Shown piece by piece: positions 3,886 to 61,814 of a DNA stretch of 64,000 bases. The notes under the pieces were generated by a model, which saw only the letters and a program-made list of their open reading frames with translations, was not told the origin of the DNA and made no database searches. The position numbers and the translations under genes were made by a program. The DNA is from a virus (taxonomy: Duplodnaviria; Heunggongvirae; Uroviricota; Caudoviricetes): IMG/VR virus record IMGVR_UViG_3300036982_001423; one strand, written 5' to 3'. Within the stretch, counting starts at the first letter, position 1, and the number at the start of each line of letters is the position of its first letter.

Positions 3886-4076
3886 TCGCAGATATCCTAG
3901 GAGGAACCGTCAGAGAAATGTGTGAGTATCTGGACGAGACTGTTCCACAAAACAAAATAGAACTAATCCATCAGGGCATGACGAACGTATTCTTTTTCTG
4001 TATACTAGTAGGATTAATTGCGGGTATACCGACGGGAATTACGATATTCTTGATTGTTAAGAGATTTGTAATGTGA
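3882..4076 (+). CDS. small membrane protein
   Basis: ATGA-coupled; hydrophobic C-terminal helix. Confidence 0.5.
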   Translation: MIADILGGTVREMCEYLDETVPQNKIELIHQGMTNVFFFCILVGLIAGIPTGITIFLIVKRFVM

Positions 4077-4471: not shown

Positions 4472-5671
4472 TTGCGAATTAAAATAAAGCGCAAGATACT
4501 GGTGATCACACTGAAGCATGTTTTATCCAAATCGCAATCGTCTCTAGAAGCATTCCAAGAGAAAGCGAGAGCAGAACACATCATAAAATTTGTCAAATCT
4601 CTTACTGAAAACAAACTTAAAATAATACAGTTGTTAGATTCAGGCTTATACCAAGCCGCAATCGCCCGCAGATTAAAACTTTCAAAATCATATATAAACC
4701 GATTCGTAAAAGAGTTATTACATAAAGGATGTATCTCAAAGGATTTCGTTAATCCTATAACTCATGTAGCTACATCGTACCTCATATCCCCTCAGTTAAA
4801 AGTTTATATTAAAAAACTAGAAACGTCAAAACCCAATTTTAATACGACATTAGCGATCCCCCATAACGTAAGATATAAATTCCCTATGATGGGAAAAAAA
4901 GTAAAAATATCGCTCAATACAAAACGTTTCGCCGCAGCGAAACTCAAAATGGAACGCGACTGGTGCATGCGTGGAGGAACGTGGTATAATTTCACTATGC
5001 GGCACGAACATATAGGGAATGTGGGTATCACAGTAACCCCCAGTTCATTATTAGTATATCAGAAAGACCGTTCTCCAATAATAGCCAAATCATGTGAAGA
5101 TGCAACGAATATCATAAGTATGAGTTTACACGAGGTTGCCAACAGGTTCGTGCAGGAACAGGCGTGGGAAAACGTGCATATAGAACTTGGACAACCAGAA
5201 CTTGTCGGAAGTCCCCATTTCGCTTTTAACAGTAAAATATCTCAAAAAATAGTTGCAGCGGGCAACGCACTCATGCAGGTAGGTAATGGATTAGAAATAG
5301 ATGACTCATTAAAGGGAAAATTCGATCAAGCAGAGATAGAAACTACAGATGCTACGCAAGCAGATTTAGTAGATAAGGGATTAAGAGTAGCAGCGGATAT
5401 TGAGAATATCGTTCCAGCAATGATCCAAAAGGAATTAAGATCAGTATCAGAGCAGGTATTAGGGATCAATGCACAAGCAGAGAAGATAGATTTAATCGTA
5501 AATTCAGTTCAAGCTCTTTGCCAGTCGGGACTTCCACGAGATCCAAGATTGGAACAACTTTTCAACGTCGTTGCAACTCAAGGAAAAACAATCAATCTCA
5601 TGCAAGAAAGCATGCTCGGAATCATCAAAAATATGGAATTAATGTTACACAATCAACAAAAAGGTGTTTGA
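4472..5671 (+). CDS. winged-HTH domain protein (putative transcription regulator) with large C-terminal domain
   Basis: N-terminal KLKIIQLLDSGLYQAAIARRLKLSKSYINRFVKELLHKGCI resembles an MarR/ArsR-like wHTH; 399 aa. Confidence 0.55.
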   Translation: MRIKIKRKILVITLKHVLSKSQSSLEAFQEKARAEHIIKFVKSLTENKLKIIQLLDSGLYQAAIARRLKLSKSYINRFVKELLHKGCISKDFVNPITHVATSYLISPQLKVYIKKLETSKPNFNTTLAIPHNVRYKFPMMGKKVKISLNTKRFAAAKLKMERDWCMRGGTWYNFTMRHEHIGNVGITVTPSSLLVYQKDRSPIIAKSCEDATNIISMSLHEVANRFVQEQAWENVHIELGQPELVGSPHFAFNSKISQKIVAAGNALMQVGNGLEIDDSLKGKFDQAEIETTDATQADLVDKGLRVAADIENIVPAMIQKELRSVSEQVLGINAQAEKIDLIVNSVQALCQSGLPRDPRLEQLFNVVATQGKTINLMQESMLGIIKNMELMLHNQQKGV

Positions 5672-6398
5672 AACGAGTCATCCAAACAAAACCTACACAA
5701 ATTTTTGCAAATTTTGTAAAAAAAAGTTTAAAACAAAAAATAAAATAAAATTATTCTGTTCAACAAACTGCTATGGAAAATGGCAATCAAAATACAGAAT
5801 AGGAAACAAGCATCATGGAACGGGAACAAAACAATCTCTTGAAACTAGAAAAAGAATATCAGAATCGATGAGTGGAAAAAACCACCCCAATTTTGGTATA
5901 AAATATTCAAAAGAAAGATGTTCCAAGATGAGTGAACGTAGTAAAGGAAAAAATAGTTATTGGTATAACAAAAAATTATCCCCCTCTCACGTAACTAATA
6001 TAATATCGGGAAATAAAAATAGCATCAAACGAAAATTAAACCCCCAAAAAAAAGGGATAGAATCTACGGCATGGTTAGGTGGAAAAACAAAAGAAAAATA
6101 CCCATCATTTTTAAGAGAGAAAACCGTTAATCGTATAATTTATGCAACTTATAGCAACAAATGTGTTATCTGCGGGGCATCTCCAGAGCAATCAAAAAAA
6201 GAAAGTAACTATGGATTAGCAAAACACCATTGGGATTATAACAAAAACTCAATTAATATTGTAACATTATGTAAAAAACATCACGATATGACTTCAATAA
6301 ACAAAGACCGCCCTTATTGGGAACAATACTTCCACGAACTAACAGCACTCACCTATGGGGGTACACCTATTATATTCAAAACGTTTCTAAAACCATGA
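5664..6398 (+). CDS. HNH homing endonuclease with NUMOD3 DNA-binding repeats
   Basis: Repeated E(T/E)RK(R/K)ISES..GK.HP..G motifs (NUMOD3); C-terminal CVICG...KHHWDYN...LCKKHHD HNH signature. Confidence 0.75.
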   Translation: MFETSHPNKTYTNFCKFCKKKFKTKNKIKLFCSTNCYGKWQSKYRIGNKHHGTGTKQSLETRKRISESMSGKNHPNFGIKYSKERCSKMSERSKGKNSYWYNKKLSPSHVTNIISGNKNSIKRKLNPQKKGIESTAWLGGKTKEKYPSFLREKTVNRIIYATYSNKCVICGASPEQSKKESNYGLAKHHWDYNKNSINIVTLCKKHHDMTSINKDRPYWEQYFHELTALTYGGTPIIFKTFLKP

Positions 6399-8440: not shown

Positions 8441-8513
8441 TACGGTTTTTATAATGTGTATATACAGTCCACACCTGTAAATAGGTATCCCCTCATGGGA
8501 AGAGTACTCAATC

Positions 8514-14529: not shown

Positions 14530-15621
14530 TTATTTATTTAGTTGAGCATATTCTTCTTTAGTATAGAAACATTTACCCCAATAGTCCTCATCAATAATCT
14601 TCTCAAATTTTTTGATCCATGTTAGTTTATCTTTTGCAACTTCCCCATGTTCTTTTGCAGTTAATAAAACAAATTTATTCGGATCTTCGCCCACATAATG
14701 CCGATACATATTAGGTTTTTTTGCAGTTCCAATATTAATCATCGCATAGTAACCGTGATCATCTTCAGACCATTCACAGCAAGCCCTCTCTTGCCAGTAT
14801 ACATGATGACGAGTTAATGCACGACCCCCATTATCTATTTTTGTTTTCTTAGAGAGGATACTACGATTATTTTGAAATGTATCGATTCTAACCCATAGAT
14901 CTTTATTCCACAATTCACAATATTTTTTCTTTCCATTATAACGAACATTCCCATACCAAAAACCGCCTACTTTTGCCTCCACAACTTTCATAGTGTGCAT
15001 TTCAGATTTAGGTCGTCCAATTTGTGCAAGACTCATCCGTTTACATGTTTCAGAAGTAAATGTTTGCCCTATATGTGCAATCCGCAGTTTTTCGCGGGTT
15101 ATTAAAGAAGCGGGCTTTCGTTTCGCTCTTACTTTCGGAATTTTCGGGATATCAACAAGTATTTTTACTGTCGCAACTTTATATTTAGATTCCCGTTGAG
15201 GTTTAATTTTAATTGGTCGGATTCGTTTTTTCTGGGATACGCTCATTCTTTTACGTGTTTCTTCTGACACGGGATTTAATACAGAACGTATCTTTAGGGC
15301 GTTTCGGATTTTATCTCTTGTGAGGGGGTTTTCCATCCGCTTTTTAGCCGCAACTCGCATACGTTCAAACGATTCAGCAGGAATTTCAAAATTAGTACGG
15401 TCATGTTTTTTAGTTATTATTTTTGCCGTATGTTCTTTTGATTGAATTTTTCCCTTATTTGCAATAGATAATTTTTTACGAGCCTCTGGAGAACGCATTC
15501 TCATTATAGCTGCATCAGATATTTTTTTACAATGTTCGGGAGTAAACCGTTTACCCCTATTTGCAACAGATAACTTTTGTCTCCAGTTCTTATATTTTAT
15601 AGGATCTTTTGGTGCAGGCAT
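14530..15621 (-). CDS. homing endonuclease, NUMOD3 repeats + HNH-like nuclease domain
   Basis: Only clear minus-strand gene; repeated RKKLSIANKGK / TRKRMSVSQKK / CKRMSLAQIGR NUMOD3-like motifs; C-terminal HH...N...H His-Me finger-like region. Confidence 0.7.
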   Translation of the reverse strand: MPAPKDPIKYKNWRQKLSVANRGKRFTPEHCKKISDAAIMRMRSPEARKKLSIANKGKIQSKEHTAKIITKKHDRTNFEIPAESFERMRVAAKKRMENPLTRDKIRNALKIRSVLNPVSEETRKRMSVSQKKRIRPIKIKPQRESKYKVATVKILVDIPKIPKVRAKRKPASLITREKLRIAHIGQTFTSETCKRMSLAQIGRPKSEMHTMKVVEAKVGGFWYGNVRYNGKKKYCELWNKDLWVRIDTFQNNRSILSKKTKIDNGGRALTRHHVYWQERACCEWSEDDHGYYAMINIGTAKKPNMYRHYVGEDPNKFVLLTAKEHGEVAKDKLTWIKKFEKIIDEDYWGKCFYTKEEYAQLNK

Positions 15622-15864
15622 ACACTCTATAAGAGTTAATATTATTTAATAATGCCTAATACCTAGTTTTATCCTATTGAATTAGTTACCCCAAACAAAT
15701 GCCCAATGCCGCAATCCCCAATTAGCACAAATCCCAAAATCTGGAATTATCTATTTTTTGACGCCTAATGCCGTGACACCTCCGAATCCTCGAATACCAA
15801 CGTAACGCCTAATGCCTAACCCCCCGGACTACTGCTCGGCATTGGAAGGCGCACCTCCGATCCC

Positions 15865-15951
15865 CCGACACCCCCCGCACAGACCCCTGCTAAAATTACA
15901 CGGATGTATATACAGGGAGAACACAGTTTTTTTAAAGCACTTCGATCCAAT
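15865..15951. repeat. direct repeat unit 1 (CCGACACCCCCCG ... AAATTACACGGATGTATATACAGG ... AAAGCACTT)
   Basis: Second copy at 16085..16157, about 220 bp away. Confidence 0.6.
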
Positions 15952-16084
15952 GCCGAGTATCCCGAAGGCGAGGCATTCGCACTCTCCGAGGACACGGCAT
16001 TGGTATTTTCCACCAGATTTTCTCCAACGGTTCACCCGCCGAGAACCCCGCCGGATCCCCCCGTATGACTAAAGCTCCTCCACG

Positions 16085-16157
16085 CCGACACCCCCCGAAC
16101 CCCCCGATAAATTACACGGATGTATATGCAGGAAAGAAGCCCAAATTATAAAGCACT
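16085..16157. repeat. direct repeat unit 2
   Basis: See 15865..15951. Confidence 0.6.
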
Positions 16158-17396
16158 TTAATTTATGAATAATTAATTATCCCCCTTCTTTCTTTCGTAC
16201 TATCTATTATTCCTCTGATAATCTCTATTCCAAAAGAGAGTACCCCCCTACCCCCCTAAGAGAAAGGGTTTTTCCCTTATTATCCCCATAGTGAATAAAG
16301 GTGATAAAGGGAATAGACCCCTCATAATAGGAGCAGGGTAATATCCCGCAGGGTTAAAGCTCTTTTATGGACTGCATATACAGAACGAAAATTACCGAGC
16401 CGAGCCAAGCCCCCAAGCCCAGACCCGACCCGACCCGACCAGACCAGACAAACCCCGGCACCGAGGGAAAGGACGACCCCCGCCCCCCGGACAACCCAGA
16501 ACGCAGGAACGATGGTACACGAGATTGCCGCACCCCCCGCACTTCTAAAGAAAATACGCCTGTACCAGACGAACTGCCGCACCAAGCCCTCCGAGGTAAA
16601 ACACCCCCCGCACACCTCTGACACCGAGGTTAAATTTAGAACCCCCCGCCTGTACACGCCTGTAAAAGCAGGTTCAAAAAAAGAGGCAAAAAAGAGTAAA
16701 AAAAGCCAAATCTCCGACGTAAAAATCACTTTCACCCCCCCGCCCAAAGGTATATATCCTACCCAGTCAATCTATCAATCATGCAATGGATGGAACAAAC
16801 GGGAGGGAAAAAGTGAACCAGTGAACCGGGACACTCCTTATCATAGGAGAAAACCCGGAAAAGGATCGGTGATAATCCAGAGGGTAAGCCCCCCTGATAA
16901 CAACCAAAATTTCCCGCCTGATAGGGAGATAAAAAGTTGTAAGTCAGGAGGAAACCTCAAATTATCCCCGACCAGACAATTTTAAACGAGCGACCCAAAT
17001 GTTAAATCGCCGTCATAAAGAGAGCAGATTTTATTTTTCACCCGATCAGTTATGACCTGACAAGACGGAGAGATTAGCCGGTAAACCGGGATAAGAGATT
17101 ATCGCAATGGGAAACTCAGCGTATCCGAGAGGATATACTAAACACAAACACCGAGGTAAAAACGAGTAATATCGTAAGTAACCCCACGAACAACCACACC
17201 CGTAAACCGTTAAACGGCACACGGAGAACAGCCGAAATTTACCAGTTATGGAAATTTAGGGATTTTTGTTTTTTCAATCGCCAACAACAGCCCGGCACAG
17301 GCAACCGGACGGGATTTATGTAAACCAGTTATGGAGTACACAGCAGGATCACGCCCTGCCAAATCCGTTAAAAAAACCAGTACCGCAAAACGACCA

Positions 17397-17435
17397 CAGA
17401 TCACGCCGAAACAGGCACGATCACGGAGGGAAAAT
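17397..17435 (+). promoter_or_regulatory. conserved 33-nt leader GATCACGCCGA-N-GGCACGATCACGGAGG immediately upstream of ATG (copy 1)
   Basis: Near-identical element at 22016..22057 ahead of another ATG; contains direct repeat CACGATCACG. Confidence 0.55.
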
Positions 17436-19067
17436 ATGACAACCGTAAAAAGCGAACTACTAACACACATTAAAGCGAAATATTCAATTATCGCCCTTCA
17501 GACTTCAGAAGAAGCCAGAGCGATCCGCATAATTGGAGAAATCGCAGCCGACCCGCAGACCGTAAAAAGACAAGTCTATATCGGCAGCATCACAAAGGGA
17601 TTATACCCCGCAGACGACGAAAAATCTTCTGGTTATTGTGCAGCCATCGACCTACTCAATATGATTGAGGAACAGCAAAACCAGACCAAACCCGCGCCGA
17701 CAATTTACATATTGCTCGACCAACACGAAGCGATCACAAACGACCTTACATATCGCCGGAAACTGCGAGATCTTCAGACCTTGTTAAAAGCGAAAAACTC
17801 AACAATTATTTTGATAAGCCCCACCGTAGAAGTGCACCCGGACTTATCAAAGACCATTACGGTTTTTGACCTGCCACTACCTGATAAGGTAGAACTTGAA
17901 GAAATCTTATGTACGCGGGTAAAATACCTACAAAAACAGGTAAAAACACTCAGGGATGAGATCACCAGTAAACCCGAACAAACCGCCAGTATCCAAAAGA
18001 AACTGGACACACTCGTACCGATCACCGAAGCACTCATACGACAAGCTACAGAGCAAAAGGATGCAATTGTTTCAGCCTTACAGGGAACAACCGGAGGAGA
18101 AGCAGATCAGACAATCGCCAAATGTATAGTTCTTAAAGATCTCAATATCTCAACAATTTTACAGGAGAAGAAGCAGATCGTTAAGAAATCCGGAGCACTC
18201 ACCTATCAGGAAACCGACGAAACAATCGCCGGAATAGGAGGGTTGAAAAACCTCATAAATTGGGGAAAATCAGCCCGGAACCGCTTTACTGAGACCGCAC
18301 GAAAGTACGGATTAACCCCGCCGAAAGGAGTTATTTTCGTAGGAGCACCGGGAACGGGTAAAACGTTAAGCGCAAAAGCACTTTCCAATCTATTCAATAT
18401 CCCCCTACTGACCTTAACAATGGCGGAAATGACTTCCAAGTACTACGGACAGACCGGCAATAACATGATAGCAGCGATCAAGCTGGCACAAGCTATGTCA
18501 CCCTGTATTGTGTTTGTCGATGAAATCGACAAAATGTTCGGTACTTCAGGAGGGAACGAACACGAAGAAAGCGCACGTACACGAGGAGCACTCTTAACCG
18601 CAATGGAAGAAAGCACAGGGATTTTCTGGTTAGCAACATGTAACCAACCCACTGCATTAGCGCCGGAACTGTTAGCCCGATTTCCTACTGTATTCCATGT
18701 AGATTTACCAAGCCCGACAGAGCGCAGGGAAATTTTTAGTATTCACCTAAAAAAGATCAACCGCGACCCAGTAAAATTTGACCTTGACCGCTTAACCGCC
18801 GTCAGTGACGGGTATGTTGGAAGGGAGATCCGGAACGCTTTACAGGAAGCGTTAGGACAATCTTTTGACGAGGGTATAGAGATCACAACCGATCATATCA
18901 TAAAAGCGATCCGCACGATCACCCCAACCAGCGTACAACGTAAGGACGATATCGGCAGGATCAGGAAATGGTGTGAATTAAACGCACGACCCGCCAACGA
19001 GCAACCGGAGAAACCGGAAAGCCCGACAATGAGCGAAGCAGATCTCAACAAAGAACTTGAGATCTAA
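17436..19067 (+). CDS. AAA-family ATPase (classical AAA clade) with about 290-aa N-terminal domain
   Basis: Walker A GAPGTGKT, Walker B IVFVDEID, second region of homology ALLTAMEE...ATCNQPTALAPELLARF; start placed at 17436 after conserved leader+SD (track ORF extends to 17331). Confidence 0.85.
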   Translation: MTTVKSELLTHIKAKYSIIALQTSEEARAIRIIGEIAADPQTVKRQVYIGSITKGLYPADDEKSSGYCAAIDLLNMIEEQQNQTKPAPTIYILLDQHEAITNDLTYRRKLRDLQTLLKAKNSTIILISPTVEVHPDLSKTITVFDLPLPDKVELEEILCTRVKYLQKQVKTLRDEITSKPEQTASIQKKLDTLVPITEALIRQATEQKDAIVSALQGTTGGEADQTIAKCIVLKDLNISTILQEKKQIVKKSGALTYQETDETIAGIGGLKNLINWGKSARNRFTETARKYGLTPPKGVIFVGAPGTGKTLSAKALSNLFNIPLLTLTMAEMTSKYYGQTGNNMIAAIKLAQAMSPCIVFVDEIDKMFGTSGGNEHEESARTRGALLTAMEESTGIFWLATCNQPTALAPELLARFPTVFHVDLPSPTERREIFSIHLKKINRDPVKFDLDRLTAVSDGYVGREIRNALQEALGQSFDEGIEITTDHIIKAIRTITPTSVQRKDDIGRIRKWCELNARPANEQPEKPESPTMSEADLNKELEI

Positions 19068-19226
19068 ACTTTTTTGTTGCTTTGTGTATATACATACACA
19101 AAACGAACACACCGATCACCCCGGTAAAAAAGCATTCAACAGAACAGCCATGAGAACACAGCGCACGACCAGAACGGGAACCCCCGCAAAACGGTCACAG
19201 CGCACGTTTATAGGAGGATCAACAGC

Positions 19227-19604
19227 ATGAGCCACATAACAACCGTAAGCACTAAAATAGTGCTTAAAAACGAGCAGATGATTAAGAACGCACTCACCGT
19301 AATGAGTAAGCAATTTGAGGGCATGACCTTTCAAAAAATGGATGAAAGCACCATTATGGTGAGATACGCAAAAATTGAGAACTACCAGACACACGGAAAC
19401 CTCAGGTTCATTAAGAACCCCGCCGGTATTTGGGAGATGCAGCTAGATACGTGGATGTGCGACGCGGAGATCGCTAAAGTCAGAGAAGCGTTTTTCGTGC
19501 AGTATCAGACCGCCGCAGTATCTTCATATCTGGCACAGAAAGGATATTCGACTACCAAGAAGAACGACGGCAAAAACGTAATCCTTTCCGCAGTGAGGTA
19601 CTAA
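19227..19604 (+). CDS. hypothetical protein
   Basis: SD AGGAGGATCAACAGC-ATG. Confidence 0.6.
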   Translation: MSHITTVSTKIVLKNEQMIKNALTVMSKQFEGMTFQKMDESTIMVRYAKIENYQTHGNLRFIKNPAGIWEMQLDTWMCDAEIAKVREAFFVQYQTAAVSSYLAQKGYSTTKKNDGKNVILSAVRY

Positions 19605-20787: not shown

Positions 20788-21072
20788 TATCCCCTCTATC
20801 ACCCGGCGTACCCTTAAGGGTACGCCTACCCTCTTTCCCCCCAAACAATGCATATACACAAAGGACTTTTTAAAGCACCTTTAGGGTTTAATCCCGTTGT
20901 GTATATCCCCGTATTATCGAAGTTAGTACGGAACGTTTTACACGCTGTTAAGCGTTATATTGTCCTTATGACGGTTCACTGCCGTATAAGGATTTTCAAA
21001 AGTATAGCTATTCGACCAACCCCGCACCCGACCCGTATAAAGGTCACAGTGCCCGTTTATTTGAGGATAATC

Positions 21073-22219: not shown

Positions 22220-22299
22220 AAAATACGATCACAGGAGGATAACCAGATGATAACCCACCCATTTTTCACCACGCACAACGACGGAGAAAATTTTTACCG

Positions 22300-22566
22300 C
22301 ACCCACGAATGCCGAGCAACCGAGCCACAGATCCAATGCCAAGTTCCGATCCGCAGACGAATGCCGAGTAGTTTTGGGGAACACGGCATTGGCTCCACAG
22401 GTAAGGCATTAGGCTTCCATCCTGTATATGCAACACGAACTCCACTGGCGAGTCAAGGTATTTCGTGTGGAACACGGCATTAGGCTTCGACGGAATGGTA
22501 AAGAACACGCCCAGAATACCCCAGACAATGGGTATGTATATGCACAAGACATTAGGCATTACGACG
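22300..22566. repeat. cluster of GGCATTAGG / AATGCCGAG motifs in non-coding region
   Basis: At least 8 copies of the GGCATT/AATGCC core; same motif in opposite orientation at 15649..15816. Confidence 0.55.
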
Positions 22567-22576
22567 GAGGTTCAAA

Positions 22577-22780
22577 ATGTCAGACATAAGTAAAGGACTA
22601 AAATTAGTGCAAGAAACGGACGCACAGATTTATCAAAAAGTAAAGGAACTCAAAGACCTTATGTATGAGCGCAGAACTCTAATGGAAATGATCAAAGAGA
22701 AAGCGCCGGACGACTGGTTAGATCAATTTCTCACTACGGGTAATCAGATCTCAATAGAGGATATTGAGATATTCATTTAA
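22577..22780 (+). CDS. hypothetical protein
   Basis: SD CGGAGGTTCAAA-ATG. Confidence 0.55.
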   Translation: MSDISKGLKLVQETDAQIYQKVKELKDLMYERRTLMEMIKEKAPDDWLDQFLTTGNQISIEDIEIFI

Positions 22781-22986
22781 CTATTTCGGTTCATAGTTCC
22801 GAGGTTAAATATAACCGGGATAATACCCCGGCAGTATAGCAGGAGAACATCATTTTCCCTCAAAATATCAATATATTTTTCATACCTGTATATACATCGG
22901 TTCAATCCGAGGGCAGGTTTTCAGAGTATCGTAGGAGAACACAGCGCACAACTCAAAGAAAGTTAAGCGCACGTTAAAGGAGATTG

Positions 22987-23628
22987 ATGTATATGCACAG
23001 ACAAGAACCTATCGAAACTATTGTGGAACCCGCCCATTTCCGGGCAGGAGTTTACCACCAAACACAAACATTGAAAATCTATCAGGACGACGATCCGCAA
23101 AACCCCCGGACGGAATGGGATAACTTCGGGAAAATGGTATGCTTCCACAAAAGATACCAGTTAGGGGATGTAGGACACGGCATTAGTGAGGACGATTTTT
23201 CTGCATGGTCGGAACTGGAACAGTATTTGATTGAGGAGAAGGGTGCGGCTGTAATTCTGCCAATTTATATGTATGATCATTCCGGGCTATCAGTGAATAC
23301 GACAGGATTTTCGTGTTCATGGGATAGCGGTCAGATTGGATATACATATATAACCTGCAAAGAAATACTGGAGAATTGGGGGGAGAACCAGATCACAAAG
23401 GAACTCCGTCAGAAAGCCCATGATCTTTTAGTTGGAGAAGTCCAGAACTACAACGATTATCTCACCGGAAATGTATATGGATATATTCTGGAAGATGAGA
23501 ACGGTAACGAACTCTGGTCATGTTGGGGATATTCCGGGGATGGCGCAGTCGAGCAGATCAAATCCGAACAACTGTATATACACAACTCACAGAAATCCAC
23601 AGGAACTCAAGTTAATGCAGAGGCGTAA
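22987..23628 (+). CDS. hypothetical protein (MYM start)
   Basis: SD AAAGGAGATTG-ATGTATATG. Confidence 0.6.
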   Translation: MYMHRQEPIETIVEPAHFRAGVYHQTQTLKIYQDDDPQNPRTEWDNFGKMVCFHKRYQLGDVGHGISEDDFSAWSELEQYLIEEKGAAVILPIYMYDHSGLSVNTTGFSCSWDSGQIGYTYITCKEILENWGENQITKELRQKAHDLLVGEVQNYNDYLTGNVYGYILEDENGNELWSCWGYSGDGAVEQIKSEQLYIHNSQKSTGTQVNAEA

Positions 23629-35583: not shown

Positions 35584-35781
35584 ATGATCGAATTAACGGA
35601 ACAGGATTTAACTGATATCACCGTCGTATTGGTCAGAATAATAATGCTGATTGATGTAGAACACCAAAATCGGTCACGGTATGGCGAATTACATGATAAA
35701 ATACAAATTATCAGACGTAAAAATGGAACATTTGTGAGTGTAGATTCAAATGAAAAAAACCGCAGAGAAACCACAGAGTAA
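35584..35781 (+). CDS. hypothetical protein
   Basis: 65-aa ORF. Confidence 0.45.
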   Translation: MIELTEQDLTDITVVLVRIIMLIDVEHQNRSRYGELHDKIQIIRRKNGTFVSVDSNEKNRRETTE

Positions 35782-36478
35782 TAATAATGTATATGCAAAA
35801 ACATGCCTGTTAGATTCCATGCATATTGGGGAGTTCGAGGAGCTGGGTATTCCAGTAAACCAGAGAGTAAAATCCGATGGGGTTGAATTTCTGAAAACCT
35901 TACCGGATCATAGTATTCCGTGTTGTTTCTTCGATCCGCAATACAGAGGCGTATTAGATAAAATGAATTACGGGAATGAAGGTGCAAGGCAGAAAGGCAG
36001 GGCGACTTTAACTCAAATGGACGTAGTTAAAATTGGCGAGTTCTTATACGAGATTGACAGGGTATTAGTGCCGTCAGGACATTTGTTCCTTTATTGTGAC
36101 AAATTCCATTTAGTTGAAGGAATAACCAGTTGGTTTGAGTGTACTGATTTGAACGTAGTTGATCTTATCACATGGAATAAAGAGAGGTTCGGGATGGGTT
36201 ACAGGACACGCAGAATGGCAGAATATTTAGCCGTATTACAGAAAAGCCCGAAACGAGCTAAGGGGATATGGTCTATCCATAATATTCCGGATGTATGGTC
36301 AGAAAAACAGATGAAAGATCATCCGCACTCAAAACCGATAAAGTTACAGTCAGCGTTGATTGAAGCGGTTACAAGAAAAGGTGATGTAGTGCTTGATCCC
36401 GCAGCAGGTTCGTTCAGTGTAATGAAATCTGCATATACAGTTGGCAGACATTTCGTGGGCTGCGACTTGGAGGGTTGA
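35750..36478 (+). CDS. DNA N4-cytosine/N6-adenine methyltransferase (beta-class amino-MTase; start uncertain, alternative ATG 35819)
   Basis: Catalytic motif IV FFDPQY (DPPY-like) before AdoMet motif I VLDPAAGSFSV; permuted order typical of beta-class. Confidence 0.75.
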   Translation: MKKTAEKPQSNNNVYAKTCLLDSMHIGEFEELGIPVNQRVKSDGVEFLKTLPDHSIPCCFFDPQYRGVLDKMNYGNEGARQKGRATLTQMDVVKIGEFLYEIDRVLVPSGHLFLYCDKFHLVEGITSWFECTDLNVVDLITWNKERFGMGYRTRRMAEYLAVLQKSPKRAKGIWSIHNIPDVWSEKQMKDHPHSKPIKLQSALIEAVTRKGDVVLDPAAGSFSVMKSAYTVGRHFVGCDLEG

Positions 36479-45861: not shown

Positions 45862-46920
45862 ATGATCTTAACCTTCAAACTCAAGCATGAACAGAACTAT
45901 GATAGTCTGTTAAAGAAAGCGTTTGAAGTAGCGGAGTTTACGGTTGCTAATAAGATCCGATCCCCGAACACTACGTTTGTTAAAGATATACGGGGAGATT
46001 TACCGTCAATGATAGCATGTCAGGTGATGAAAAAGTATGGTCATCAGAAAACGATCAAAGCAGTTCACAATGCCAACTTAATTATACCGGGACAGGGTGT
46101 AAAGTATATTGAAGAAACGAACTCTATTTGGATACCGTGTCTGAAACTACATTTAGAGAATACTATTAATCGGACTTTCAGTAAGATCAACCAAGTAGAA
46201 GTTGACCGAGAGTTTGCGTATATTTCATGCACTGTAGCAGAACTACCGGAGATGATACCCTATGAAAATATCATAGGAGTTGACAGGAACACAACCGGAC
46301 ACATAGCCGTATCAGCGAACTTAACTACAGGTCAGGTAAGGATGATGGGTAAGAAAGCCCAACACCTCCATACAAAATACCGACAGTTAAGAACGGCTAT
46401 GCAAAAGGACGGACAGTATCGCAAGGTTGAACGGATCAAGAGCCGTGAAAGCCGGATCGTGAAGGACTTAAACCATAAGATCAGTCGTAAACTGGTTGAT
46501 ATGGCGAAAGTCCAACATGCAGCATTAGTATTCGAAAAACTGACGGGTATTCGAAATACTAAAAAACAATCCCGTTCATTCAAGCCATCCCTGCACAGTT
46601 GGTCATTCTATCAACTACAAACGTTCATAGAATACAAAGCCAAGCTGCTCGGAGTGCCTGTTATATACGTTGATCCCGCATACACTAGTCAAGACTGTTC
46701 TAAATGCGGTACAAGAGGACAACGATATAAAAAGGTGTTTAAGTGTCCTGCTTGTGGACACGCAGATCATGCAGACGTTAATGCAGCGTTCAATATTGCA
46801 AAACGTCAACAAACCATGATCGCTCGTATACAGACAAAGATGTGTACGATGGGAGCACTGATCTCCCACGACGACGCTCTGTTCGAACGCGAACACCGTT
46901 TAGAACCCCACGGTCTTTAG
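45862..46920 (+). CDS. tnpB: TnpB (IS200/IS605 OrfB) RuvC-like RNA-guided nuclease
   Basis: RuvC-I GVDRNT, RuvC-II E in LVFEKL, Zn finger CSKCG...CPACGH, RuvC-III HADVNAAFNIAKR. Confidence 0.85.
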   Translation: MILTFKLKHEQNYDSLLKKAFEVAEFTVANKIRSPNTTFVKDIRGDLPSMIACQVMKKYGHQKTIKAVHNANLIIPGQGVKYIEETNSIWIPCLKLHLENTINRTFSKINQVEVDREFAYISCTVAELPEMIPYENIIGVDRNTTGHIAVSANLTTGQVRMMGKKAQHLHTKYRQLRTAMQKDGQYRKVERIKSRESRIVKDLNHKISRKLVDMAKVQHAALVFEKLTGIRNTKKQSRSFKPSLHSWSFYQLQTFIEYKAKLLGVPVIYVDPAYTSQDCSKCGTRGQRYKKVFKCPACGHADHADVNAAFNIAKRQQTMIARIQTKMCTMGALISHDDALFEREHRLEPHGL

Positions 46921-55333: not shown

Positions 55334-55496
55334 CGTAATAGTAACCCCCAGTATGATCATTGAATATCTGGAAATGAAAAGCAAAGAGCAAGACCTAAAC
55401 AACCAATCAAAAGAACCGAAAAACACACTCGTACAATTCCTAAAAAACCAATCAAAAGAACCGGAAAGCACAATTATACAATTCCAAGAACCGTGA
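55317..55496 (+). CDS. small repeat-containing protein (59 aa)
   Basis: contains 2 x about 42-bp tandem DNA repeat encoding NQSKEPxxT..QF. Confidence 0.4.
   Translation: MAQLTNVIVTPSMIIEYLEMKSKEQDLNNQSKEPKNTLVQFLKNQSKEPESTIIQFQEP
55393..55480. repeat. two tandem units of about 44 bp (AACCAATCAAAAGAACCGRAAARCACA...TACAATTCC)
   Basis: read from sequence. Confidence 0.7.
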
Positions 55497-59589: not shown

Positions 59590-59891
59590 CTAACTCTCTT
59601 TTGTAACATTTATGCCTCTTATGCCCCAATGGTAACACGGTGCTTCGACGTAGTGCTGGCAACTTGTTACCATTATGTTACCATTACTTTTGTGTATATA
59701 CATTAAGGAAAAGCAATAGCGGGGTTTAAAGCCCAAAAAGCATTGGCAAGTATCAAAGTGCGATCAGAAACCCGGATTGGATTTGGTGAAATATGTGTCG
59801 TTAAAAAATTTGCTAATTGGTTTATATGATCGGGTAATTATATTATAGCACAACTAACTATAACAAAGTATAAATACTTTTACGACGTAGA

Positions 59892-61229: not shown

Positions 61230-61814
61230 ATGGCTGAACGTGTTATTGAAAGACAAGGTTCACGAATTTTAACACCTTCTCAATATTTGAGATTGCGTGA
61301 ACAGTTAGATCCTAACATTGGTTATCAATTAATTACTGATGCTCTTTTGAATACTGGTTTAAGAACCGTTGAATTCTGGCATCTTGTTGACAACCCCCAT
61401 TGGTATCACTCATCAAGTAGAGTAATAGATTTACCTGCGGTGGGTGCGGCAAAAAAACAAAAAAGTTCCAAAAAAGATAGGACAATCCGTTTAACGGAAA
61501 ATGGTTGTAAATCATTGGATACTTTATTTGCAGTGAAAATAAAATTTAAGGATAGAGATCAGATGGGAAAGGCATTAAAAAGAGCTGCTATAAAAGCAGG
61601 TTTTGGTGCAAGATATATCAATCCTAAGATGTTCAGAAAAATGTTAGTGAGTTATTTGTGTGATTGTAGAAAAGAATTGGGTATAGATGCATTAGATATC
61701 ACTGCAAATATGGGTCACGACGAAAAAACATTACGCGATCACTATCTGGGGATAGGGTTTAATGAAAAAGATCATTTAGAAATACTTGAATTTTTACAGG
61801 GGTGGAAATTATAA
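61230..61814 (+). CDS. tyrosine recombinase / integrase (catalytic domain only, 194 aa)
   Basis: Box I LRTVEF (Arg), box II MGHDEKTLRDHYLGI (His ... Arg ... Tyr nucleophile). Confidence 0.65.
   Translation: MAERVIERQGSRILTPSQYLRLREQLDPNIGYQLITDALLNTGLRTVEFWHLVDNPHWYHSSSRVIDLPAVGAAKKQKSSKKDRTIRLTENGCKSLDTLFAVKIKFKDRDQMGKALKRAAIKAGFGARYINPKMFRKMLVSYLCDCRKELGIDALDITANMGHDEKTLRDHYLGIGFNEKDHLEILEFLQGWKL

Follow-up and report, generated by a model that had tools for sequence, protein, structure and literature searches.

What does the gene-free stretch of about 1.8 kb at positions 15622-17435 of the Caudoviricetes record IMGVR_UViG_3300036982_001423, between a minus-strand homing endonuclease gene and an AAA ATPase gene, do for the phage that carries it? 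It is the longest conserved non-coding region of the window (the whole 64,000-nucleotide stretch of DNA that was analysed), and a first-pass annotation had headlined it as a replication origin or master regulatory region, with structured non-coding RNAs as a fallback. By comparing it with related metagenomic phage contigs, we found that this stretch is a composite non-coding locus conserved across one uncultured phage clade, and we read it, with a probability of about one half, as a promoter-operator array driving a new phage non-coding RNA of 0.5-0.9 kb. The labels "master regulatory region" and "structured non-coding RNA" fit the selection acting on the region, its covarying helices with GNRA loops and the presence of a twin of its box array before another gene.

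The limits and composition of the region were largely as first described. Its right edge had been put at 17330; homologues of the AAA ATPase are about 543 amino acids long (56-97% identity) and cover 94% of the 578-residue open reading frame (ORF), so that a start at the ATG at 17436, after a GGAGG, fits and the gene-free stretch therefore extends to 17435. C exceeds G in 15622-17330 (28.4% and 18.7%, against 18.9% and 21.7% in the whole window), and 10 of the 13 CCCCCCG sites of the window lie inside the region, all on the + strand (3.7 expected per window). The pentanucleotide array (CCCGA)3(CCAGA)2 was placed at 16419-16449 by TRF. Three GCCTAATGCC boxes had been listed; two of them, at 15763 and 15807, are exact, while the copy near 15651 is a variant, AATGCCTAATACC. 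The 45-bp direct repeat turned out to be a real two-copy composite (15865-15951 and 16085-16157) and no contiguous repeat, its pieces (16 + 24 + 9 nucleotides) being scattered across about 75-90 nucleotides: CCGACACCCCCCG stands at 15865 and 16085, and the 24-nucleotide unit AAATTACACGGATGTATAT(A/G)CAGG at 15893 and 16109, with 96% identity.

The region keeps no ORF. Nearly all ORFs of the window are small, lie on the + strand and have no function assigned in Pfam and PHROG scans, as in a phage-like stretch; within the gap, by comparison, the stop-free frames vary in strand, position and length between relatives, and gene callers leave the gaps of the relatives mostly empty. The translated ORFs of the region, including one of 157 amino acids, are of low complexity and match no Pfam or PHROG family, tblastn of the region gave weak, low-complexity matches spread over several frames, and stop-codon reassignment opened no long frame in it. 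A conserved small protein was considered and rejected, its frames not being conserved and the tblastn matches being weak. No tRNA or tmRNA genes were found in the window.

Relatives were fetched with the AAA ATPase as anchor, by taking the contigs of its closest homologues (56-74% amino acid identity); the samples behind these contigs include JGI 3300048646, 3300069122 and 3300037488, ENA ERZ25039462 and SRA SRR32234027/29. Nine related metagenomic phage contigs show 1.3-2.5 kb without genes ahead of the orthologous AAA gene (loci L001, L003, L004, L085, L086, L087/L121, L088/L089 and L122/L123, and one further, that of P0003, by gene table only), and a gene-poor gap occupies this position in every close-homologue contig with sufficient upstream sequence:

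L001: gap of about 2.0 kb upstream of the AAA gene
L003: gap of about 2.0 kb upstream of the AAA gene
L004: gap of 1.76 kb upstream of the AAA gene
L085: gap of 1.4 kb, then one extra ORF (170 amino acids) before the AAA gene
L086: gap of 1.3-1.9 kb upstream of the AAA gene
L087: gap of 2.47 kb upstream of the AAA gene
L088/L089, L121 and L122/L123: contigs beginning inside the gap

Colinear blocks of these gaps share 70.6% identity over 683 nucleotides (L004/L088), and 75% over 561 and 83% over 271 nucleotides (L085/L088, L085/L089). In the adjacent AAA gene, overall nucleotide identity is 57-70% and four-fold sites are 26-49% identical, i.e. saturated. The gap blocks are thus conserved where synonymous sites are not, which points to selection on the nucleotides themselves, and an origin of the region as a recent insertion of host DNA does not hold, the gap being conserved in nine related contigs. 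The feature is confined to one clade, since L124, whose AAA homologue is 57% identical, has ordinary genes in place of the region, and since 26 distant AAA loci with enough upstream sequence (at most 39% amino acid identity) showed neither gap nor C bias nor motifs. A metagenome scan returned a single close locus (L005, on the contig that is also L089), the others being at most 39% identical at the amino acid level. The DNA of the region had no match in the INPHARED phage records, exact-motif and protein-pattern scans of IMG/VR found no close relative, and a search of GTDB genomes with a 19-nucleotide leader motif gave one chance match inside a bacterial gene, where a covariance model from the region (R1, below) had no match. 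Within the region, the following features were recognised:

15651-16003, no strand assigned: array of nine AATGCC/GGCATT boxes in the order >>>>><><<, a candidate operator array
15865-15951, + strand: repeat module 1 (repeat families D2 and D7), with the C-box CCGACACCCCCCG at 15865, the palindrome TGTATATACA at 15905-15914 and TTTAAAGC at 15931-15938
16085-16157, + strand: repeat module 2 (families D2 and D7), with the C-box at 16085-16106, TGTATATGCA at 16121-16130 and TATAAAGCAC at 16148-16157
16181-16290, + strand: pyrimidine-rich block with the core AGAGAGTACCCCCCTACCCCCCTAAGAGAAAG and a small hairpin AAGGG-TTTTT-CCCTT
16354-16383, + strand: promoter-like element TTAAAG-N13-TGCATATACAG, candidate start of a long non-coding transcript
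16384-16745, + strand: C/A-rich, G-poor repeat zone (families D2, D3 and D5, and TRF)
16746-16759, + strand: conserved AAAGGTATATATCC box, a possible internal promoter for the folded domain
16780-17229, + strand: multi-helix folded domain of about 450 nucleotides, recognised by folding z-score and covariation
17230-17275, + strand: terminator-like hairpin AAATTT-ACCAGTTATGG-AAATTT followed by TTTTTGTTTTTT, candidate RNA 3' end or attenuator
17330-17435, + strand: leader cassette of the AAA ATPase gene, with the hairpin GCAGG-ATCACGC-CCTGC, two GATCACG boxes and a GGAGG Shine-Dalgarno sequence (SD)

The evidence for an RNA comes from the right part of the region. Compared with shuffled sequences, 16780-17435, which includes the G-balanced domain 16780-17229, had a folding z-score of -4.3, and the best-supported piece of the domain (17106-17198) contains the GNRA hairpin TATCC-GAGA-GGATA at 17122-17135. 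The GNRA loop is present in all lineages and the stems vary yet remain complementary (ACCC/GGGT, ACCA/TGGT, GATAA/TTATC, ATCT/GGAT, ATCC/GGAT); a second helix, which encloses a small hairpin and a conserved AAGTA, likewise occurs as GGAGG/CTTCC, GACGG/CTGTC, GGCGG/CTGCC and GGAGA/TCTCT. Covariance model R1, built on 17106-17198, recovered this piece in seven lineages (E 1e-12 to 1e-25) and gave no confident match outside them. A match in the distant locus L008 (E 0.016), which has neither gap nor motifs, was taken as chance. In the alignment of the R1 piece, 83.5% of cells are paired (74% in shuffles, 40-53% with slid partners), with six compensatory pairs; in its helices 1 and 2 alone 91% of cells pair and five pairs are compensatory (slid controls 40-53%). 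Extended to about 700 nucleotides, a five-sequence consensus comprises 50 pairs in 11 helices, with 79.9% of cells pairing against 31-53% when slid and 19 compensatory pairs against 4-10, and one long-range helix, UGUUUUUG/CAGAAACA, becomes CUUUUUC/GGAAAAG in L085. Compensatory base pairs, the mark of a structured RNA, were found above controls, with five to seven sequences per helix and structures scored on the alignments from which they were derived. The covariance-model search that had been proposed for the region, run with 4227 Rfam models (GOLLD, ROOL, OLE, riboswitches, group I/II introns, RNase P, tmRNA and 6S among them), named no known family: there was no match at gathering thresholds in the whole window, four chance-level matches (E at least 1.4, none of them GOLLD or ROOL) in 15500-17600 at E up to 10, and no match in L004, L088, L123 or L121 at E up to 1.

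Downstream of this domain, local folds of the window, L085, L088, L003, L123, L004 and L086 mostly gave a hairpin beside a U-run about 150-190 nucleotides ahead of the gene start, with L004 and L086 showing the fold least clearly. The loop CAGTTATG is retained between the window and L085/L088, with different stems. A simple terminator scan missed the hairpin at 17230-17275 because its A/U-rich stem contains few G-C pairs.

Three observations favour the + strand. Among tetraloop hairpins, 15 of 108 on the + strand have GNRA or UNCG loops (5.7% expected from composition), compared with 7 of 188 on the - strand (3.8% expected); only on the + strand does a U-run follow the hairpin; and almost all neighbouring genes are read in that direction. 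Counts of G-U versus A-C pairs, considered as a further strand test, were dropped, the G/U-rich reverse strand folding at least equally well.

The left third of the region carries the box array. A perfect 12-nucleotide inverted pair, CTCGGCATTGGA at 15835-15846 and TCCAATGCCGAG at 15946-15957, 99 nucleotides apart, brackets repeat module 1, and the spacers between inverted boxes vary from 13 to 17 nucleotides. Module 2 follows module 1 at 216-220 nucleotides; both take the form of a C-box, TGTATAT(A/G)CA and (T)TTAAAGC, and modules of ATATACAG-N17-30-TTTAAAGC are present in every relative. The AATGCC/GGCATT boxes are interleaved with promoter-like TGYATATACA and TTTAAAGC motifs, and the box arrangement of 15651-16003 recurs in L003, L004, L085 and L086. 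Downstream, the window has a second array:

22308-22577, no strand assigned: second AATGCC/GGCATT array, containing TGTATATGCA motifs and immediately preceding a gene with its ATG at 22578

In three genomes (window, L003 and L004) such a second array lies 6.5-7.5 kb downstream of the first, with boxes in the same >>>>><><< order (window 22308-22555, L003 13179-13499, L004 7803-8125). Its TG(T/C)ATATRCA motifs stand between GGCATTAGGC boxes, 35-160 nucleotides before the SD and ATG, the last of them about 35-45 nucleotides before. Because a twin array sits in front of an ordinary gene, we read the box array as a control element and not as specific to an origin. On the simplest reading, the boxes would be operators, probably for a phage DNA-binding regulator that is so far a candidate (the window encodes HTH proteins, for example in ORF 4472-5671), and the palindrome would be the core of a phage promoter. 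The idea that the arrays bound, as inverted ends, a mobile or invertible segment of 7 kb was rejected because both share one orientation pattern. Taken more broadly, the second arrays lie at 22308-22577 in the window, 13179-13526 in L003 and 7803-8160 in L004; gene callers and the ORF list set a minus-strand ORF, probably spurious, over the array in the window (22266-22559) and in L003 (13008-13496).

The promoter-like motifs are shared with the rest of the window. The ATATACA core is over-represented well beyond the region, ATATACAG occurring 27 times in the whole window against 2.7 expected (about ten-fold). The palindromic motif is found 50-150 nucleotides upstream of 33% of SD-preceded starts, as against 16% of random positions, and 41 times outside ORFs against 30.5 expected, many copies still being intragenic. 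The perfect 10-bp palindrome TGTATATACA has 23 copies in 64 kb (about 0.1 expected by our own base-composition estimate), and its one-off variants TGCATATACA and TGTATATGCA have 13 copies each in the window. Copies such as those at 8457, 19085, 26890, 29285 and 59693 are on both strands, inside and between ORFs, and the intergenic ones are often preceded by a T-rich run. At two more intergenic sites, 20848-20900 and 59693-59734, the palindrome is followed by TTTAAAGC, with spacers of about 10 nucleotides at 20852 and about 25 at 59696. Possible roles of the palindrome are the core of a phage promoter, a binding site and a site of modification; the window has a gene for an N6/N4 DNA methyltransferase (35750-36478).

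Between the array and the folded domain lie further conserved elements. The core of the pyrimidine-rich block (TACCCCCCTACCCCCCTAAGAGA) aligns in the window, L003, L085 and L086 (alignment columns 1250-1300), and TRF found TACCCCCC in 2.2 copies at 16241-16258. In the promoter-like element, TTTAAAG(C/A) followed by (T/C)ATATAC is aligned in 7 of 8 sequences (columns 1408-1440), L087 having only a degenerate copy (GAAAC...TGTATATGCAG). A sigma-70 scan (TTGACA-N16-18-TATAAT-like) showed no enrichment, with 14 calls against 9.7 expected, and did not call the conserved TTAAAG...TATACA element, which matches the sigma-70 hexamers at about 3-4 of 6 positions each; sigma-70 may not be the host's consensus. 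The repeat zone that follows is built of CCGA(G/C)GT(A/T)AAA ... CCCCCCGC(A) units and CGCCTGTAC boxes, includes an A-rich tract (16676-16712) and has a C/G ratio of 1.2-2.7 per 100 nucleotides over about 400 nucleotides without an ORF. Its homologous blocks are 70-75% identical across 560-680 nucleotides among L004, L085 and L088, and reading of the eight-sequence alignment revealed no consistent pairing in it. A TGCGGC/GCCGCA helix in this C-rich zone was rejected, the copies in the window and L086 being direct and not complementary. At the border of the folded domain, RRAAGGTWTATAT of the 16746-16759 box is aligned in 8 of 8 sequences (columns 1930-1950).

The last part of the region is of another kind. 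The AAA leader cassette, with either GCGCACG or GATCACG boxes, also stands before the genes at 19227 and 22984 of the window and before several genes in L004, L087, L088, L086, L123 and L001, so that the last ~110 nucleotides of the region are an ordinary gene leader of this clade. The cassette is laid out over about 100 nucleotides as a hairpin with an ATCACGC loop and a covarying stem, GGTATCGCAGGAGAAC, two 7-nucleotide boxes, SD and ATG; the two boxes flank a small variable hairpin and are always matched within one cassette, and this matching of the direct repeats suggests that both share one partner, which may be an RNA or a protein dimer. Its sites are 17330-17435, 19150-19226 and 22921-22990 in the window, and in relatives 1944-1993, 3958-4018 and 5665-5727 of L004 and 2847-2894 and 4820-4869 of L087.

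Taken together, these elements suggest the following model. The left third (15651-16160) would be a promoter-operator array, in which AATGCC/GGCATT boxes bound by a phage protein are interleaved with the phage's own promoter-like TG(T/C)ATATACA and TTTAAAGC motifs, and the rest of the region would be a non-coding RNA gene, read from left to right like almost all genes. Transcription would start at TTAAAG-N13-TGCATATACAG (16354-16383) and yield an RNA of about 0.9 kb or, alternatively, start at the internal AAAGGTATATAT box (about 16750) and yield one of about 0.5 kb. The transcript would cross the unstructured C/A-rich zone, with its SD-like CGA(C/G)G(G)TAAA units and CCCCCCG boxes, continue through the ~450-nucleotide multi-helix domain with GNRA loops and end at the hairpin and U-tract at 17230-17275, after which the AAA ATPase gene would use its own standard leader cassette. 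We infer transcription, strand, RNA ends, binding of the boxes by a regulator and RNA function alike. As a guess, the RNA could be an abundant scaffold or decoy that holds a host or phage protein by its repeated single-stranded units, the folded domain giving it stability or a second binding surface.

Several points weigh against this model. Transcription, RNA ends and strand are all predicted from the sequence. A consensus of the same quality (76 pairs, 18 compensatory) is obtained from the reverse complement, as expected of a G/U-rich strand, so that the pairing statistics leave the strand unfixed and would also fit DNA hairpins. Each helix is documented by 5-7 independent sequences, with a consensus scored on its own alignments, and the fold is not uniform across the clade, model R1 missing the piece in L087/L121 and L001. 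The promoter-like motifs do not correspond to any established consensus, the palindrome also turns up frequently within ORFs on either strand, and the C-rich half, without structure, could act as DNA.

Of the competing explanations, a long cis leader or attenuator of the AAA operon is the least improbable, though we consider it unlikely. The region and the gene would then share one transcript, with the fold and the hairpin/U-tract deciding read-through by termination or antitermination, and Rho could naturally load on the untranslated stretch, rich in C and poor in G. Such a leader would account for RNA elements lying directly upstream of the AAA gene on the same strand in all relatives, for the conserved terminator-like hairpin between folded domain and gene, and for the C/G ratio of 1.2-2.7 over ~400 nucleotides; however, the AAA gene has a complete leader cassette of its own, of the kind preceding other genes, which suggests separate expression, the extra 170-residue ORF of L085 lies between RNA and gene, and L124 carries the gene without the region. 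The origin headlined by the first-pass annotation appears less probable than the leader. It would require the CGACGG...CCCCCCGC units to be iterons for an unrecognised initiator, the A-rich tract or an AT patch to unwind, and the promoters to activate or prime. As in iteron origins and archaeal origin recognition boxes (ORB), short repeats are indeed clustered beside A/T-rich patches in non-coding DNA, four or five units lying next to the ~40-nucleotide A-rich tract at 16676-16712, with a 40-nucleotide patch of 85% A+T at 16142-16181 and promoter-like elements alongside; the region's rank as the longest conserved non-coding one of the window and a cumulative GC skew with a local maximum at ~14 kb and a minimum at ~22 kb point the same way. 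Unlike in such origins, the repeats are irregularly spaced, at 33-442 nucleotides, or 33-612 across families D2, D3 and D5, and the C-strings all have one orientation instead of being inverted around an unwinding element. The ORB-like G-strings of the headline found no positive support, the search for a dyad plus G-string placing 10 of 10 CCCCCCG sites on the + strand and in none of the inverted repeats found. There is a single DnaA box, with one mismatch, AT-rich patches are only short, and no replication protein was recognised in Pfam or PHROGs among the ~30 window ORFs of at least 120 amino acids. The skew analysis, made on the 64-kb window only, shows no sign switch across the region (the skew is positive over 1-14 kb and again after 22 kb), the local dip being due to the C-rich stretch and C-rich genes themselves and not to a strand switch. 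Transcription of the + strand would give a C-rich RNA, which disfavours stable R-loops and was counted against an origin, and an origin would leave unexplained both the long-range covarying helices with GNRA loops and the box array recurring upstream of an ordinary gene.

Another DNA-level signal is considerably less likely again: a T5-like site for injection stop or partition, or one at which many copies of a box-binding protein would serve packaging or organise the nucleoid. The T5 injection-stop region is untranslated and has eight DnaA boxes in a fixed arrangement inside the terminal repeat (10.1101/866236). Our locus resembles it as a large conserved untranslated stretch, dense in direct and inverted repeats and palindromes, that follows small early-type genes, but neither a DnaA-box array nor a terminal repeat was seen at it; in L001, a contig of 180 kb, about 40 kb separate it from the closer end, and both the second box array upstream of a gene and the RNA-like features are left unexplained. 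The most improbable accounts, to which we give almost no credence, are that the region is coding sequence of a degenerate or unusual kind, that it is neutral junk or that it was recently inserted. A 222-codon stop-free frame at 16317-16985 and several ORFs of 60-157 amino acids could hint at coding, but these frames shift among relatives, their translations are those low-complexity ones without family match, and a reassigned stop codon does not lengthen them; junk and recently acquired host DNA are ruled out, the region being far better conserved than synonymous sites.

The promoter-operator array with its RNA can also be taken one step further, into a proposal that we hold to be unlikely: a new large phage RNA in two parts, a factor-soaking arm and a multi-helix domain, whose synthesis would be switched by a dedicated box-binding regulator. 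The arm would be single-stranded, made of repeated C-rich and SD-like units, and would capture a host factor, for instance S1 or the 30S subunit, Hfq, Rho or some further RNA-binding protein; the compact domain, of about the size of ROOL or GOLLD, may self-assemble or bind a phage protein; and the regulator would also control a second operon ~7 kb away.

The genes on either side bear out the first description of a minus-strand homing endonuclease, which proved to be of NUMOD3 type, and of an AAA ATPase:

14530-15621, - strand: NUMOD3-type homing endonuclease gene (PHROG 314, E 5.7e-7), with repeated NUMOD3-like motifs
17436-19067, + strand: AAA ATPase gene of SpoVK/Vps4 type (PF00004), syntenic anchor for the relatives

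No minus-strand gene is present at the endonuclease site in L001, L003, L004, L085, L086 and L087, so that the endonuclease is a recent insertion at the left edge, outside the conserved locus. A second NUMOD3 homing-endonuclease-like gene lies at 5664-6398 (+ strand; PF07460, E 1.6e-11). Elsewhere in the window, we noted a TnpB/Cas12f-like ORF of 352 amino acids at 45862-46920 (+ strand; PF07282, E 1.4e-26; PHROG 506 "transposase", E 8.6e-41), a 45-nucleotide tandem repeat at 55394-55485, the strongest of the window (2.0 copies, 87% matches, TRF score 142), and a weak phage integrase match at 61230-61814 (+ strand; PF00589, E 2e-4, under the curated cutoff). Among the relatives, L003 (a 32.6-kb ENA contig) has ABC transporter, MacB and FtsX-type genes beside phage-like genes at 16581-19579, a block that may be cargo taken from a host, mark a prophage junction or result from chimeric assembly; the same contig encodes an ART-PolyVal domain protein (5260-5778).

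How does the proposed RNA locus compare with known systems? Vibriophage ICP1 makes a transcript of ~800 nucleotides, its most abundant one, from a ~1-kb gap without ORFs, and the large ornate RNAs GOLLD and ROOL are found in many phage genomes (PMC7567579); GOLLD and ROOL form homo-oligomeric RNA-only complexes, as seen by cryo-EM (PMC12286853). To judge from its sequence, our locus is akin in kind to these RNAs and belongs to none of their families. It shares with them a non-coding unit of several hundred to ~1000 nucleotides in an ORF-less phage gap, with helices and GNRA-type loops; it matches neither GOLLD nor ROOL in sequence or structure and has no tRNA genes nearby, and in contrast to all three its fold follows an unstructured C/A-rich zone and a protein-box array, the transcript here being predicted. 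The left third, for its part, is like phage promoter-operator arrays in that direct and inverted short boxes bracket promoter-like motifs and a second array precedes a gene, whereas no described consensus that could be tested here fits the boxes (AATGCCTA/AATGCCGAG) or the palindrome, and the inverted-box spacers of 13-17 nucleotides vary in a manner unusual for rigid dimer sites.

The feature is real, conserved and unannotated, in a clade that was not met in searches of INPHARED, IMG/VR and GTDB species genomes and in which nearly every scanned protein lacks an assigned function. These results argue that a long "empty" stretch of a phage genome should be tested for an RNA or regulatory function before it is called an origin. 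Few large structured phage RNAs are known, GOLLD, ROOL and the ICP1 transcript among them; they are abundant where they are expressed, their function is still to be found, and each unrelated example with a clear genomic context is another route to what such RNAs do. More conserved than the adjacent gene and equipped with a control array, the locus described here probably matters to the infection programme of this clade.

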